A stretch of DNA of 27,333 nt from Candidatus Woesearchaeota archaeon (GTDB lineage: Archaea; Nanobdellota; Nanobdellia; Woesearchaeales; ARS49). Both the position numbers and the translations under genes were made by a program. The stretch is taken from the NCBI GenBank assembly GCA_003694525.1, contig RFLK01000086.1, forward strand, positions 1 through 27,333, written 5' to 3'. A model generated the notes under the pieces. That model saw only the letters and a program-made list of their open reading frames with translations, ran no database searches and was not told the origin of the DNA. This document shows, piece after piece, positions 158-27,065 of the stretch. Each line of letters opens with the position of its first letter. Positions within the stretch are counted from its first letter, which is position 1.

Positions 158-799
158 TCACAGGCTTGGTGAGGGTACGTTCAACTCTTGTTCTAGGACG
201 ACATTTGCGCCTTTGTCATTTATGACCCAGATGTCTATGCCGTTTCCTGTTGCAGTGTCTCTTTGCAGCGCTGCGGATATTGCTTTTGCTGCAAGTTTTA
301 TTCCTTCATCCGTGCTCATTCCCTTCTTGTAGAGCGCTTCAAGTGTTCCCAGTGCAAATACTGATCCTGAACCGTCTGAAGTGTAATCTGGAATCTCTGT
401 TATGCTTCCGTCAATTCCAAGATCGTATAGGTGGTTTCCATCATCGTCGTGTCCTGCAAGAAGGAATGCTACGATTCCCGGAACCATGCTTGGCTTTCGC
501 AAATTGCTGTATAGCATTCCTGCAAGAAGGTTTGCAGTCTCTTTAACTGTGCTTTTTCGAAGCGTTTGAAGGTTTCGCAGTTTAACTTCTGCGCGTATAA
601 GTTTGACGAGAAGTTGAGCATCTGATACAAGGCCAGCCATAGTGACCGCCATATTGTCAGTTATCCTGTGGACTTTTTCTGCTCTCTTGTTCACTACAAA
701 GCCCGCTGTTGCCCTTCTATCTGCTGCTATGACAACACCGTCTTTGCACACGATTCCTACTGTCGTTGTTCCTTTCTGCACTTGTAATTTTTCATCCAT
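158..799 (-). CDS. psmB: Proteasome 20S beta subunit (Thr protease) with a 10-aa propeptide
   Basis: MDEKLQVQKG|TTTVGIVCKDGVVIAADRRAT gives the G-T1 autocleavage site. Also GSGS and RDTATGNG motifs. Confidence 0.97.
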   Translation of the reverse strand: MDEKLQVQKGTTTVGIVCKDGVVIAADRRATAGFVVNKRAEKVHRITDNMAVTMAGLVSDAQLLVKLIRAEVKLRNLQTLRKSTVKETANLLAGMLYSNLRKPSMVPGIVAFLLAGHDDDGNHLYDLGIDGSITEIPDYTSDGSGSVFALGTLEALYKKGMSTDEGIKLAAKAISAALQRDTATGNGIDIWVINDKGANVVLEQELNVPSPSL

Positions 800-22018: not shown

Positions 22019-23536
22019 TTAATTTCCCGTTCCAGGTCCGGTGCCACCTCCGCCTCCTATTCCACCAGAGCCTCCAGGGCTTCCCCCGCCAGAGCCTCCT
22101 GAACCACCAGAGCCTCCTCCGCCAGATCCGCCACTGCCCGAACCTCCAGCAGGCACTGCTGATGATTTGCTGCCTGATTTTTTCTTAAGTGCAAATGATG
22201 CAATTGCTGCGATCTGGGCAATATCAGATACTATTGATGAGCTAAGGCGCGCTATTGCTGGATTTGTGCTTCCAACAAAGTGATCGTGATTGGCAAAGCC
22301 GTATCTTATTACGTTTCCCTCATCAAGTATTTGCTTGTATTGTTCTCTCTCATCTCCCTCCGGCTCAAAGTAGTCCTTTGAAAACGCATCCTGCCAGTTT
22401 GCAATCGTGTATGCAAAGCTTGCAAGAGGGGTTGCTGGCATTAGAATGTCTTCTATTAGCTGAACTCCTCTATTTCTTGGCGCATTTAACTCTTCAAATA
22501 TCTCTGCTATCCTGTGATATGCGTGCCTGTTCGCCTTGACAAGCTCAGAAGGATTGTCTTTTAGCGCTTCTTTTAGAGAGCTTGTATAGATGAAGATGTA
22601 TCTTGAGGCATCGTGCAGCTGGTCTGTTGTCAGTGTCCAGGAACTTCCAATATCTTCTGCCAATGAGCGGAGTCTTAGTTCTATTACTGAGTGTAGTGTT
22701 TCAAGGGTCCCATCCCAGCTTATTTCGTATTCTTTTGCGGCAAGTTCTGAATCGCTGTTCCTTATGCTTGAAAGTTTTCTCTCAAGCGCCTTCTCGTATT
22801 CTTTTTTGCCTTCAACATATAGTTCTCCCTGAAAATTCTCACTGCCCGTCAGATAGTCTTCAAGTCTTGCCCTGAGCTGATTCAGCTCATCTATTCTCTC
22901 AAAGTTTCCTTCGTGAACGACAGTGTCTGCCCAGGCCTGAGTGTAACTCTCTACTCTTTCAAGGTCTGATTTGTATTCCTTAAATGCTTGTTTTATTTTT
23001 GCATTTTCTGAAAGGATGCTTTCAAGCCTTGCCAGATCTTCGTGTTTTAATGCTTCAAATGTATTTTCAGCTATCTCTCCAAATAGCCCTTGTTCTATTC
23101 TCTTTTGCTCTTCTTCAGAGAGCTGTTCGTAATCAGGAATGTTCGCATCACACATCCTATCTGCCAGTTGAAGAAGGTATCGCTCTATTCTTCCATCTTC
23201 TTTTATGTACCCTATAAATTCAATATGGTCAAATAGTGCGTTGACTTTTTCTGCAAGTTCTGGCGTGTTTTTTGAGTGAACTTTGTATATTGCAGCTCCC
23301 CTCAGTGCATCAAGATTATTGTATGTCGAGTTGTTTCCTCTCAGAATATCAGATATTGTGTTTTCAATTGGACCAGAGTAAGTGCTTGTTTGGACTCTTG
23401 CAATAAGTTCTGAATCGTCTTCTCGTCTTGGGTAGTGTGTTCCGCTTGCGCTACAGCCTGCAAGTGCAAGCGCTGCGCTTGCGATAAATGTTATTCTTTG
23501 AGCAAGCGTTCCTTTTCGAGATCTGTATGCTGGCAT
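22019..23536 (-). CDS. Putative lipoprotein (505 aa), alpha-helical, with a Gly/Ser-rich C-terminal tail
   Basis: Basic N-region, hydrophobic stretch and lipobox LAG-C. The tail is GGSGSGGSGGGGSGGSGGSGGGSPGGSGGIGGGGGTGPGTGN. Start moved to 23536 because a TATA box (23570-23577) abuts the track's 23569 start. The stop is 1 nt before the adhesin ATG. Confidence 0.8.
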   Translation of the reverse strand: MPAYRSRKGTLAQRITFIASAALALAGCSASGTHYPRREDDSELIARVQTSTYSGPIENTISDILRGNNSTYNNLDALRGAAIYKVHSKNTPELAEKVNALFDHIEFIGYIKEDGRIERYLLQLADRMCDANIPDYEQLSEEEQKRIEQGLFGEIAENTFEALKHEDLARLESILSENAKIKQAFKEYKSDLERVESYTQAWADTVVHEGNFERIDELNQLRARLEDYLTGSENFQGELYVEGKKEYEKALERKLSSIRNSDSELAAKEYEISWDGTLETLHSVIELRLRSLAEDIGSSWTLTTDQLHDASRYIFIYTSSLKEALKDNPSELVKANRHAYHRIAEIFEELNAPRNRGVQLIEDILMPATPLASFAYTIANWQDAFSKDYFEPEGDEREQYKQILDEGNVIRYGFANHDHFVGSTNPAIARLSSSIVSDIAQIAAIASFALKKKSGSKSSAVPAGGSGSGGSGGGGSGGSGGSGGGSPGGSGGIGGGGGTGPGTGN

Positions 23537-23569
23537 CTTCCCCCCCAACTCTCGCAAGACAACATCCAC

Positions 23570-23577: not shown

Positions 23578-23684
23578 GGTTATGCTACTGAGCAGTAGTT
23601 ATACTTTGCCTATTGGCAAGAGTTCTTAAAAAAGTTCTAACTGACAAAAGTCTTTGATAGTGCGCTCTGCAAATATCAAATGAT

Positions 23685-23699
23685 AAGAAAAAGAAGAAG
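23685..23699 (-). terminator. Putative oligo-pyrimidine terminator after rpl15e-orf54
   Basis: Minus strand CTTCTTCTTTTTCTT, starting 22 nt after the stop at 23722. Confidence 0.4.
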
Positions 23700-23721
23700 T
23701 TGTTATTATGGTGTGCTATTT

Positions 23722-23886
23722 TTACAATTCATCTTCAGTCCATGCATCTTCAACATAGACTGTATCGCTCGACTCTTCAAGGTCCTCTTCATAATCGCCA
23801 TCAGAGTCTATGAAGTCTTTTGCATAATCATAATCTTCAAATTCGTCCTCGAAGGACTCTTCAGATTCTTCCTTTAAGTCACTCAT
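23722..23886 (-). CDS. 54-aa hyperacidic small protein
   Basis: Not in the ORF track. MSDLKEESEESFEDEFEDYDYAKDFIDSDGDYEEDLEESSDTVYVEDAWTEDEL. The SD GAGGTGA (23892-23898) directly follows the rpl15e stop, with a 5-nt spacer to the ATG. Confidence 0.8.
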   Translation of the reverse strand: MSDLKEESEESFEDEFEDYDYAKDFIDSDGDYEEDLEESSDTVYVEDAWTEDEL

Positions 23887-23899
23887 TCAGATCACCTCT

Positions 23900-24466
23900 T
23901 TAGAGTTTTCTGGAGTTTGCTCGTCTGCTTGGACGTGCTTTTTCAGCCCCCTTGCCTTTTGCTCTCAATCCTCGCATCTTGCGCCCTGCACTTGTAAGGC
24001 CTCTGTGGGCTCTGCCTCGATGCTGGGATTGGCCTATCCAGTTCAATCCTGAATCTTTTAGTACGCTTGGGCTTGCCCTGTCTAAAAGTATGACTTCAAA
24101 CCAGTAATGTTTGCCGTCTTCTGTTAAATAATATGAGTTCAAAACTTCGCAATTCTTGTATGATTTGGATGCTCGCTCTTCTGCTATCAATTGATAGTTT
24201 TTCCTAAGGTTCAACCTTTTCCCCTGGTTTTTTGATCTCCTGCCACCCCATATCTTTGGTCTCTTGTGCCCACCTCTGGATACTCGCTGGCGCACGACTA
24301 TTATTCCCTGCTTTGCCTTATAGCCCAAAGCACGGGCTCTTGCAAGCTTTGTGGGTTTTTCTACTCTGACCGTTGCAGGCTCTCTGCGAAGTGCAATCAG
24401 TCTTTGCTTTTTCAGATCAGAAGGTTGCTTTTTCCATATCTGCTGAAGATACTTGTAGACTCCCAT
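23900..24466 (-). CDS. rpl15e: 50S ribosomal protein L15e
   Basis: MGVYKYLQQIWK, RVEKPTKLARARALGYKAKQG, EERASK...EVLNSY...DGKHYWFEVIL and RGRAHRGLTSAG. Start moved to 24466. Confidence 0.97.
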   Translation of the reverse strand: MGVYKYLQQIWKKQPSDLKKQRLIALRREPATVRVEKPTKLARARALGYKAKQGIIVVRQRVSRGGHKRPKIWGGRRSKNQGKRLNLRKNYQLIAEERASKSYKNCEVLNSYYLTEDGKHYWFEVILLDRASPSVLKDSGLNWIGQSQHRGRAHRGLTSAGRKMRGLRAKGKGAEKARPSRRANSRKL

Positions 24467-24490
24467 TATCTGCACGGGTATCGAGGTCAT

Positions 24491-24505
24491 TTTAAAAAGC
24501 TTTCG
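24491..24505 (-). promoter_or_regulatory. BRE + TATA of rpl15e, probably giving a leaderless mRNA
   Basis: CGAAAGC-TTTTTAAA, 25 nt upstream of ATG 24466. Confidence 0.6.
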
Positions 24506-24656: not shown

Positions 24657-27065
24657 CTAAAAGCTTCCAAGGGTTTTTTGTCTGACATCAGCAAGAAGTG
24701 CTTGAGAATCAATGCCCAGAGCTGAGAAGATTCTCTCAACTCCGGGGATTATCTGGTTTTGAACATAGTATTCCCCGTCGTATTCTCTCTGTTCTATCTC
24801 GTCAGGAAGCCTTACCTTGTCGCGTATTCTCCCGCTTCCTTTTGTTACAACGTAGGATACTATGGTTCCAGCGCCTACTCTCTCGCCTCTCTCTTCAAGC
24901 ATTTTTGCTGCGGCAACGTGCGGGCCTATTGATGAGTAGCTTTGAGTGGATCTTGATAGTTGTGTTCTTATTACTACTTTCTCTATTGGAAGTGAGTTCT
25001 CTCTCAGTTTGTTTATTGTGTCTTTGACGAACTCTTTTGCTTTTGAGACATTTTTTTCTTTGAGTATTATTTCGAGAACTTTTTGTTGGGTTTCTTTTGC
25101 AATTGTGCTCCAGTTTCTTCTGACCGTCTCGAAGCCTTTTATTGTTATATTATCGTCCTCGCCTAGAAGAGCATATTTTTTCTTTGCGCCTCCTTCGCTT
25201 CCCTTCAGCGCCACAAACAGCCCTGCAGGGTAGTATCCTTCATATTCAAGTTCCATAAGCTCTGGCAGTTTTTTGTTTATCCCCCTTGCAAGTGATTGAG
25301 CATCTTCTCTTGTTTTCTCTCCCAATAGAAGGAATACTGAATCTGTGTCCGAGTATAGTACTGTAAATCCTGCATTTTGGGCTTCATCTATTGCATCGTG
25401 TATGTATTTTCGCGCCCAGGCTGTTGTTGCCTCTGCGCATTCTATGCAGTACCAGCGCGATGGGGCAAATCCCATATACCCGTAAAAGCTGTTCGCAAGG
25501 ACCTTAAGCGCGTCAACTCTTGCTCTCAAGAGCGGGTCGTTTTTCTCTTTAAGCTCTTTTTTTATCCTTGCGCGAAGTAATATCAGCTCCCTTATGGTTT
25601 CGCTGAAAAGCCCTCTTTTTTTTGTGCAGAATTTCAGCTCTCCCCTCTCTGTGCCTATTGAGTTTTCATCGCCCGCACAGCAAGGACAGTTGAAAGTTCC
25701 TCTACTTATGTTGTGGGATGCTATTATTGATGGGTATAGTGATCTGTAATCAAATATTGCTATGTTCTTGTAAAGACCCGGTTTTGGCTCAAAGACAAAA
25801 GCTCCTTGCACGTGCTCGCGCATTCTCTCAGCCTGTTCCCTGTTGCTTGGCTTGTTAAGAATAATCTCGCCTCTCCCGCTTGCTTTGCGTATCAGGTACC
25901 ACTCGACAAGTTGTGAGAAGCTCATTCTGTTTATCTCATAAGGTGATAAGCCTATCAGTCTTACAAATTCTATCAATGATGGTAGAATTTTCAGGGTGAG
26001 ATCATATGTTAGCTTGCAGTCCCTCAGATTGTACTCGGCGAATTTTTCAAGCTCGCAACTCCCCTCATCCCATGCTTTGAACATCTCTTCCATATTTATG
26101 TCAAGTTTTCGCTCTCCTAAAAGCTCCTCGCTCACTGCATCAAGGGAGTAGCTGTCAGTCTCAAGGGATCTTCCGATCACTCTGCGTATGAATTTTAGAA
26201 TGTCTATGTGCGCGATTCCTGCAATTTTGGCCTCGCTCTCTCCTCTGCTTTTTATTTTTACAGGGCTGCCATCAAGCCCTATGTCAAGCTTTATCTTGTT
26301 TGATTTTGCTCTCTCTGCAAGGTATGGAAAATCAAAGCCGTCTGTGTAGTACCCTGTGATGAAGTCTGGAGAGTATTCTGCTATATGCTTTTTCATTCGC
26401 TCTATCATATCGGCTTCGCTGTCCGCAAACTCTATGTTTTTGCTCTTGTTTGGAAACTTTTTCCAGGTTATCACTTTTGAGAATCCTGTCCCGTACAATC
26501 CTATCATCAGTATCGGGTTTTTCTTTGGGTTTATGCTCTTGTTTGGACTGTAGGTTTCAATATCGATTGATAGGATTCTGGGTTTTGAAATTGCTTTTTG
26601 CTCTTGCCATATTTTTTTTGCAAGATAGCAGGGAACTTTAAGCTCGCTCTGAACTCTCTCGCATTCTGCGTGCGTGAGCTCTAATGGAGTTATGTTTTTG
26701 TCTATTAGGTATCTTCTTGTGAAGAGTATGTCGTACTCGTAGGTTTTCTCAACGCCAGGAACATCTTTTGCTGCCTTGCTGAGTGCAGGGACTGCTTTGG
26801 GCAGGTTCACATAGACTTGAATTACGCTTTTCTCTTCCTCGTTTATTCTCTTTGATTTGCGCTCTATTCTCACAACCTTGTATTCGCCTTCTTGAAGTGC
26901 CAGTATTTCGCTCTCATCAGGGTCCCCTGTTATTGTGAAATATGGCCAGAACTCATCTTCAATGCATACAAGCTCTCCTTCCTCGCTCCGCCCGAATAGT
27001 CTTATGACTGGCTTTTCTTCTCTAACAGAATAAGATGCGTCTGTTGGATAAAATGATATTTGCAT
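24657..27065 (-). CDS. polB: Family B DNA polymerase (archaeal PolB3-like), intact and intein-free, 802 aa
   Basis: ExoI SIDIET, ExoII FDFPYL, ExoIII YNLRD, motif A FDYRSLYPSII, motif B KVLANSFYGY, motif C YSDTDS, KKKYAL, and the C-terminal PIP-like QKTLGSF. Confidence 0.97.
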   Translation of the reverse strand: MQISFYPTDASYSVREEKPVIRLFGRSEEGELVCIEDEFWPYFTITGDPDESEILALQEGEYKVVRIERKSKRINEEEKSVIQVYVNLPKAVPALSKAAKDVPGVEKTYEYDILFTRRYLIDKNITPLELTHAECERVQSELKVPCYLAKKIWQEQKAISKPRILSIDIETYSPNKSINPKKNPILMIGLYGTGFSKVITWKKFPNKSKNIEFADSEADMIERMKKHIAEYSPDFITGYYTDGFDFPYLAERAKSNKIKLDIGLDGSPVKIKSRGESEAKIAGIAHIDILKFIRRVIGRSLETDSYSLDAVSEELLGERKLDINMEEMFKAWDEGSCELEKFAEYNLRDCKLTYDLTLKILPSLIEFVRLIGLSPYEINRMSFSQLVEWYLIRKASGRGEIILNKPSNREQAERMREHVQGAFVFEPKPGLYKNIAIFDYRSLYPSIIASHNISRGTFNCPCCAGDENSIGTERGELKFCTKKRGLFSETIRELILLRARIKKELKEKNDPLLRARVDALKVLANSFYGYMGFAPSRWYCIECAEATTAWARKYIHDAIDEAQNAGFTVLYSDTDSVFLLLGEKTREDAQSLARGINKKLPELMELEYEGYYPAGLFVALKGSEGGAKKKYALLGEDDNITIKGFETVRRNWSTIAKETQQKVLEIILKEKNVSKAKEFVKDTINKLRENSLPIEKVVIRTQLSRSTQSYSSIGPHVAAAKMLEERGERVGAGTIVSYVVTKGSGRIRDKVRLPDEIEQREYDGEYYVQNQIIPGVERIFSALGIDSQALLADVRQKTLGSF

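Follow-up and report, generated by a model that had tools for sequence, protein, structure and literature searches.

The DNA analysed here, a stretch of 27,333 nucleotides (hereafter the window), belongs to a Woesearchaeota genome assembly of 0.7 Mb (705 kb), which is 73% complete and originates from a hot-spring metagenome. Its minus strand carries rpl15e (23900..24490), whose product eL15 matches the Pfam family Ribosomal_L15e (PF00827) with an E value of 1e-64. On the same strand rpl15e is followed by an ORF with an ATG start and 54 codons (23722..23886), which encodes the acidic protein considered in this work. The locus is present in the DNA run of one hot-spring metagenome.

Organisation of the rpl15e locus

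The stop codon of rpl15e and the start codon of the acidic ORF are 13 nt apart, and the minus-strand junction reads TAA-A-GAGGTGATC-TGA-ATG. The Shine-Dalgarno (SD) sequence GAGGTGATC (23890..23898, minus strand) thus begins 1 nt past the rpl15e stop codon and ends 3 nt ahead of the ATG of the acidic ORF. The 27-kb window contains just two exact copies of GAGGTGAT. No 16S rRNA, the source of a direct reading of the anti-SD sequence, was found in the assembly of the window genome. At a distance of 23-39 nt past the stop codon of the acidic ORF lies the oligo-T-rich tract TTCTTCTTTTTCTTATC (23682..23698, minus strand). Read from its sequence, this tract fits archaeal oligo-T termination and represents a putative terminator; a scan for bacterial-type hairpins gave nothing at this tract. 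The SD sequence directly behind rpl15e and the terminator-like tract behind the gene had both been pointed out in a preliminary description of this DNA, and both were found at the positions given above.

Upstream of rpl15e, the minus strand encodes a family B DNA polymerase (PolB; 24657..27065; Pfam DNA_pol_B, E = 2e-65). T-tracts and the TATA-like sequence CTTTTTAAAA (24492..24501, minus strand), which was read from the sequence as a putative promoter, are located between the two genes. L15e homologues align from residue 7-9 of the listed L15e frame of the window, and the true rpl15e start is probably Met9 (ATG at 24466-24464), the listed start at 24490 being likely over-extended. The TATA-like element is situated approximately 26-35 nt 5' of the Met9 codon. 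This spacing, together with the point from which the homologues align, leads us to infer a putative bicistronic unit in which rpl15e is leaderless and the second cistron is led by an SD sequence.

Beyond the T-rich tract, the next gene (22019-23569, minus strand) codes for a lipobox protein and starts approximately 150 nt further on. A protein with a lipobox (AGC/TGC) is also encoded downstream of the rpl15e-acidic pair at four related loci (L003, L004, L005 and L008), and the lipoprotein (and adhesin) neighbourhood of the pair appears to be partly conserved.

Conservation of the rpl15e-acidic gene pair

The 54-aa peptide contains 26 D/E residues, 2 K, no R and 8 aromatic residues (3 F, 4 Y and 1 W); translation of the ORF thus reproduced the counts of the preliminary description. 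No other ORF in the size range of 25-160 aa exceeds 40% D/E anywhere in the 705-kb assembly. A family HMM run over 151 genomes of the order returned merely two matches and missed the window's own copy. Because composition correction destroys the sensitivity of such an HMM, orthologues were counted by synteny, i.e., rpl15e was located in relatives and the ORF following it was read. A word-indexed homologue search with the window peptide yielded no candidates, and the exact peptide is not contained in a collection of 15 billion proteins.

In the window's own family (f1, window included), a same-strand acidic ORF follows rpl15e directly at 62 of 65 loci, usually at a spacing of 1-40 nt. The remaining loci are L066, L068 and L076, and at L073 the ORF is merely 36 aa long. 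The comparison with about 50 other families of the order covered 56 loci, two of which carry an acidic ORF after rpl15e. One of them (L012) encodes 38 aa. The other (L121, genome G068) comprises 124 aa, starts 11 nt after rpl15e and has 50% D/E; its product is rich in Glu, Thr and Lys and contains few aromatic residues. Since this ORF shares none of the family motifs described below, it may reflect an independent acquisition of an acidic partner. The same rpl15e-acidic pair, with the two genes 9 nt apart, was also found on an independent JGI metagenome contig.

An SD-like GGTG or GAGG is present 4-16 nt ahead of the start codon in 52 of 63 copies. For 18 within-genus pairs, which are kin and not independent but agree in their signal across eight genera, dN/dS in the frame of the acidic ORF ranged from 0.08 to 0.46, which indicates purifying selection on this frame as a protein. 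An antisense ORF on the plus strand (23680-23877) was rejected as a mirror of the GAA/GAT-rich coding sequence because selection acts in the minus frame. When flanking regions were searched by tblastn, the rpl15e-acidic pair was found to persist while its flanks vary: PolB is adjacent at 6 of 19 own-family loci with about 1.5 kb of flanking sequence, and rpl15e is the only constant neighbour. As judged by synteny and selection, the acidic ORF is a real protein-coding gene, and within one family of the Woesearchaeota (DPANN) it and rpl15e make up a conserved unit of two genes. The earlier proposal of a genuine gene thus holds, and the gene appears to be translationally linked to rpl15e. In public records (NCBI), its orthologues are either unannotated or listed as "hypothetical protein", and no Pfam family covers them.

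Other genes occupy the position after rpl15e elsewhere in the order. At 6 of the 56 loci outside the window's family (L025, L094, L098, L103, L107 and L111), a zinc ribbon of 47-77 aa (CxxC...CP[YF]C) is encoded there, with an acidic, helix-like tail of the type (S/T)AQD(L/I)(L/I)EE... and only generic zinc-ribbon matches below the Pfam cut-off. By sequence, these ORFs represent a second small acidic-tailed protein at the same position. Locus L116 (genome G097) has a four-CxxC zinc-ribbon ORF and an aEF-1beta-like ORF after rpl15e. This arrangement indicates that, across the order, diverse small genes related to translation are found at the post-rpl15e position.

Modular architecture and predicted disorder

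Family alignments have a mean column identity of 18-28% and reveal a modular protein. It begins with M-(P/A)-K-K-K and a Lys-rich head, the length of which ranges from 0 to about 75 residues; in long forms an L-x-L-(x)-P motif follows. Next come an acidic stretch harbouring an aromatic amphipathic helix motif (e.g., ERYMEEFRQYIDEDE, DEFFDEEEMKEFS or DYEEMFKYF), the motif (Y)EED(L/V/I)(E/G) and a Gly-containing linker. The C-terminus is formed by [AT]-W/Y/F-x-[DE]-[DE]-E-(Y/F). Most relatives possess the Lys-rich head, which is missing in the window copy and at loci L008 and L012. In long forms the head carries a charge of +14 to +33 and the tail one of -17 to -24. Most family members can hence be classed as charge-segregated ampholytes; the window copy represents a short form without a head. 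The net charge of the window peptide is -24, those of the headless L008 and L012 are about the same, and that of the window eL15 is +37.

The conserved aromatic residues of the window peptide are F12, F16 and Y19 (Ar-x3-F-x2-Y in FEDEFEDY), Y32 (YEEDLE) and W49 (AWTEDE). Among the 22 short forms closest to the window, the columns of Y32 and W49 are near-invariantly aromatic (at least 70%); L039 and L050 have F in place of W, and in L005 an A precedes the Y. Y32 constitutes a third aromatic site in addition to the two motifs, FEDEFEDY and YVEDAWTED, named in the preliminary description. In 94% of the copies, at least one of the last 8 residues is aromatic, versus 54% (maximum 71%) in 2000 trials in which the last 50 residues were shuffled; the aromatic positions downstream of rpl15e in relatives, singled out earlier as worth checking, are therefore conserved. 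C-termini of the family read W-x-D-E, EEEY, DDEF and similar. As none ends in GGQ or GGE, an identity as Pup was rejected.

Structure prediction did not yield a confident fold. For the window copy, AlphaFold2 run with the family alignment gave a pLDDT of 64 and a pTM of 0.25; residues 3-28 form a weak helix in this model. For the long form L034 the values were 61 and 0.24, and only the segment ERYMEEFRRY was confidently predicted, as a helix with a pLDDT of 84. The spacing F12-x3-F16-x2-Y19 of the window peptide equals Y-x3-F-x2-Y in this helix. The ESM Atlas model of L034 has a pLDDT of 0.43, and ESM Atlas look-alikes were set aside as lying below the meaningful range (0.85; disordered model). 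With no confident fold and conservation confined to short motifs, the family falls into the descriptive class of disordered proteins with short linear motifs. On these models, the protein is best described as an intrinsically disordered polyanion with three short recognition motifs, in which motifs and not a fold are conserved.

Comparison with DSS1/Sem1

In the preliminary description, FEDEFEDY and YVEDAWTED had been likened to the acidic-aromatic sites EEDDEFEEF and VWEDNWDDD of DSS1/Sem1. The peptide and DSS1/Sem1 are alike in that both are small, disordered and very acidic, and carry conserved aromatic anchors in separate acidic sites, two or three in number and in matching order. Nucleic-acid mimicry on basic or hydrophobic grooves is, by analogy, plausible for both. 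At its start DSS1 moreover has a short patch of Lys ahead of L-L-E-E-D-D, which loosely resembles the layout of Lys-rich head, LxLP motif and acidic stretch in the long forms. Alpha/beta subunits of the 20S proteasome and a histone are encoded in the family genomes searched. The window itself carries a proteasome subunit gene (158-799, minus strand; PF00227, E = 3.5e-52), and a second subunit of the window genome is encoded on contig C40. The likeness and the proteasome genes would suit a true, highly diverged archaeal homologue of DSS1/Sem1 that serves complexes of the proteasome or recombination type as a subunit or hub.

The sequence comparisons speak against this reading. Human DSS1 (70 aa) and yeast Sem1 (89 aa) sequences were verified against PDB chains, and a DSS1 profile was made from these two and eleven further vertebrate PF05160 sequences. 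Neither the window peptide nor any of 20 orthologues matched Pfam PF05160 at E<=10. A family profile searched against the PDB retrieved no DSS1 chain, its sole match being an acidic stretch of RRP12 (E = 0.047). Smith-Waterman alignment of the window peptide gave z = 0.37 with human DSS1 and z = 1.32 with yeast Sem1, both against shuffles. The two motifs are thus present and conserved in the family, but their alignment to the DSS1/Sem1 sites scores like that of shuffled sequence. The DSS1 HMM scored the 63 family members at -4.8 bits on average as compared with -2.5 bits for shuffles (mean z -1.1), and hhalign aligned the family and DSS1 profiles over a single column, at a probability of 0.3%. 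An exhaustive HMMER search of 1.84 billion representatives had seven matches: six from the same Woesearchaeal family and one unrelated acidic tail, a false positive.

Structural and genomic context point in the same direction. The C-terminal amphipathic helix of DSS1 (DDFSNQLRAELEK...) is missing, as the window peptide stops 5 residues past W49 and all orthologues terminate at the aromatic-acidic motif. PCI-domain proteins (PF01399), the scaffold of lid, TREX-2 and CSN, were not found in the window genome (G000) and four near-complete family genomes. Unlike DSS1/Sem1, most members have a Lys-rich head and lie in an operon with rpl15e, and restriction to a single family of one DPANN order does not follow the pattern of an ancestral archaeal-eukaryotic gene. 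No archaeal Sem1 was found in literature searches. Low complexity blunts all homology searches, so that a distant known relative could have been missed. Taken together, homology of the acidic family to DSS1/Sem1 is not supported: as the peptide scores no better than shuffled acidic sequence, the proposed link is abandoned, and descent from a common ancestor seems extremely unlikely. The resemblance appears to be compositional, one of kind rather than of descent.

Discussion

Tentatively, and on sequence evidence, we favour the view that the acidic protein is a lineage-specific polyanion, co-expressed with eL15, whose aromatic anchors would help to shield basic nucleic-acid-binding surfaces during ribosomal-protein handling or assembly. 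The protein would be made together with eL15, and its acidic tail and aromatic anchors would cover basic, nucleic-acid-binding surfaces in the manner of an RNA or DNA mimic or of an electrostatic chaperone. As clients, the assembling ribosome or basic ribosomal proteins fresh from translation, eL15 among them, would be the likeliest. The Lys-rich head of the long forms might tether the protein to RNA or fold back on the tail.

That eL15 itself is the client is suggested by the operon linkage (62 of 65 loci) and by the opposite charges of the two proteins. However, eL15 of the window's family exceeds its counterparts from families that lack the gene neither in length nor in basicity (+29.7 versus +35.4), and no co-variation of eL15 with the presence of the acidic gene was detected; nothing thus marks eL15 as a special client. 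The acidic protein cannot be a general requirement of eL15 either, as most other families of the order do without the gene. Co-transcription with a ribosomal protein gene may perhaps just provide high expression. Of the earlier suggestion of a nucleic-acid mimic or a chaperone for basic proteins such as L15e, an acidic-aromatic binder of basic surfaces survives as the most plausible kind of protein, while L15e as its client is suggested by the operon and by no distinguishing feature of L15e.

Other partners and locations are conceivable for such a binder. Like prothymosin alpha, the protein could pair with polybasic proteins that belong to chromatin or coat RNA (histone, H1/protamine-like Lys-rich proteins). 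The ligand of the tail would then be a Lys-rich disordered segment, which long forms carry as a fused head and short-form genomes encode as a separate gene. The fusion of positive head and negative tail in long forms would agree with this idea, as would the window genome, in which the headless form coexists with a histone and a separate ORF of 112 aa with 57% K/R. Since the conserved linkage is to rpl15e rather than to histone or polybasic genes, and MPKKK is still kept in short forms, such a function seems unlikely. Alternatively, a structural ribosomal or ribosome-bound protein might be envisaged whose Lys-rich head binds rRNA and whose acidic tail serves as a recruiting arm, amounting to a free-standing version of charged ribosomal-protein extensions. 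An operon with a ribosomal protein gene suggests stoichiometric expression, and the head is present in most members; yet the head is dispensable, as documented by the window copy, L008 and L012, no fold suits a defined rRNA site, a canonical P1 stalk protein is present, and L15e-acidic fusions do not occur among 118 L15e genes. We regard this option as unlikely. The lack of a fused form also led us to discard a detached eL15 tail as an identity for the peptide. Likewise, the peptide had no Pfam match to the ribosomal stalk protein P1 (PF00428), for which a separate gene exists in all five genomes searched; the acidic protein is thus not the stalk protein.

In phage T7 gp2.5 and gp4, as in bacterial SSB, the C-terminus is acidic and serves to dock on partner proteins. 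By analogy, the acidic tail with its terminal aromatic residue might dock on PolB as a replisome-directed DNA mimic. The window and four relatives carry PolB as the neighbouring upstream gene, a fifth relative has it downstream, and the C-termini of the family (W-x-D-E, EEEY or DDEF) would be in keeping with such docking. Adjacency to PolB is nevertheless limited to 6 of 19 loci, all in the window's closest clade, as opposed to the nearly constant linkage to rpl15e, which moreover appears to have its own promoter and is separated from PolB by T-tracts. A replisome role is therefore very unlikely, and shielding of basic ribosomal surfaces remains the reading that we prefer.

The 112-aa polybasic ORF is located on contig C10 of the window genome (7402-7740; equivalent to L123:2003-2341, plus strand) and contains AKK/ARK-type repeats reminiscent of histone H1 or protamine. 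A basic helical ORF of 97 aa (L123:2289-2582) in a different frame overlaps it, which is compatible with a frameshift or with two overlapping genes. The product of the 112-aa ORF is a possible candidate for the class of ligands bound by the acidic peptide.

Dedicated chaperones of basic ribosomal proteins and acidic, disordered nucleic-acid mimics are regarded as largely eukaryotic. If our preferred interpretation is true, an archaeal polyanion hard-wired to the eL15 gene would mean that DPANN archaea, with their reduced genomes, arrived at the same solution on their own, and proteins of 50-100 aa with three short motifs would offer a very small, tractable model for electrostatic chaperoning. 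A bolder version sees in this disordered, charge-segregated protein, free-standing and encoded with eL15, the first archaeal dedicated ribosomal-protein escort or ribosome-assembly polyanion, convergent with eukaryotic escortins and nucleolar acidic proteins and arisen in one DPANN family; we consider it doubtful, indeed quite unlikely. Recognition that the resemblance to DSS1 is compositional helps to avoid announcing an archaeal Sem1 in error.

Relation to known systems

Prothymosin alpha and the acidic tails of HMGB and HMGN are eukaryotic polyanionic disordered proteins and charge-segregated ampholytes. The acidic family shares with them an extreme negative charge, disorder and, in long forms, the pairing of a Lys-rich segment with an acidic tail. 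In contrast to them it is archaeal, much shorter, endowed with fixed aromatic positions and linked to a ribosomal protein gene; the likeness is one of kind, and homology is not claimed.

Dedicated ribosomal-protein chaperones, or escortins, of eukaryotes include Tsr2 for eS26, Acl4 for uL4 and others (PMC6131548, PMC4598080, PMC6648895). Analogous to these would be the proposed role of the acidic protein, the shielding of a basic ribosomal protein before assembly, and Tsr2 likewise has acidic surfaces. Escortins are, however, folded and unlinked to the genes of their clients, whereas the acidic protein is predicted to be disordered and its gene is linked to rpl15e. Literature searches found neither an eL15 chaperone nor a dedicated ribosomal-protein chaperone of archaea.

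Low-complexity charged extensions of prokaryotic ribosomal proteins were reportedly described by Ntountoumi et al. in 2019. Like these, the acidic family ties Lys-rich and acidic low-complexity sequence to ribosomal protein genes, here in Woesearchaeota. Unlike them, it is encoded by a separate ORF with its own SD sequence and conserved short motifs, and fused forms are absent among the 118 L15e genes surveyed. Judged by its sequence features, the family would thus be a lineage-specific variant among acidic disordered binders, which are themselves a known kind of protein.
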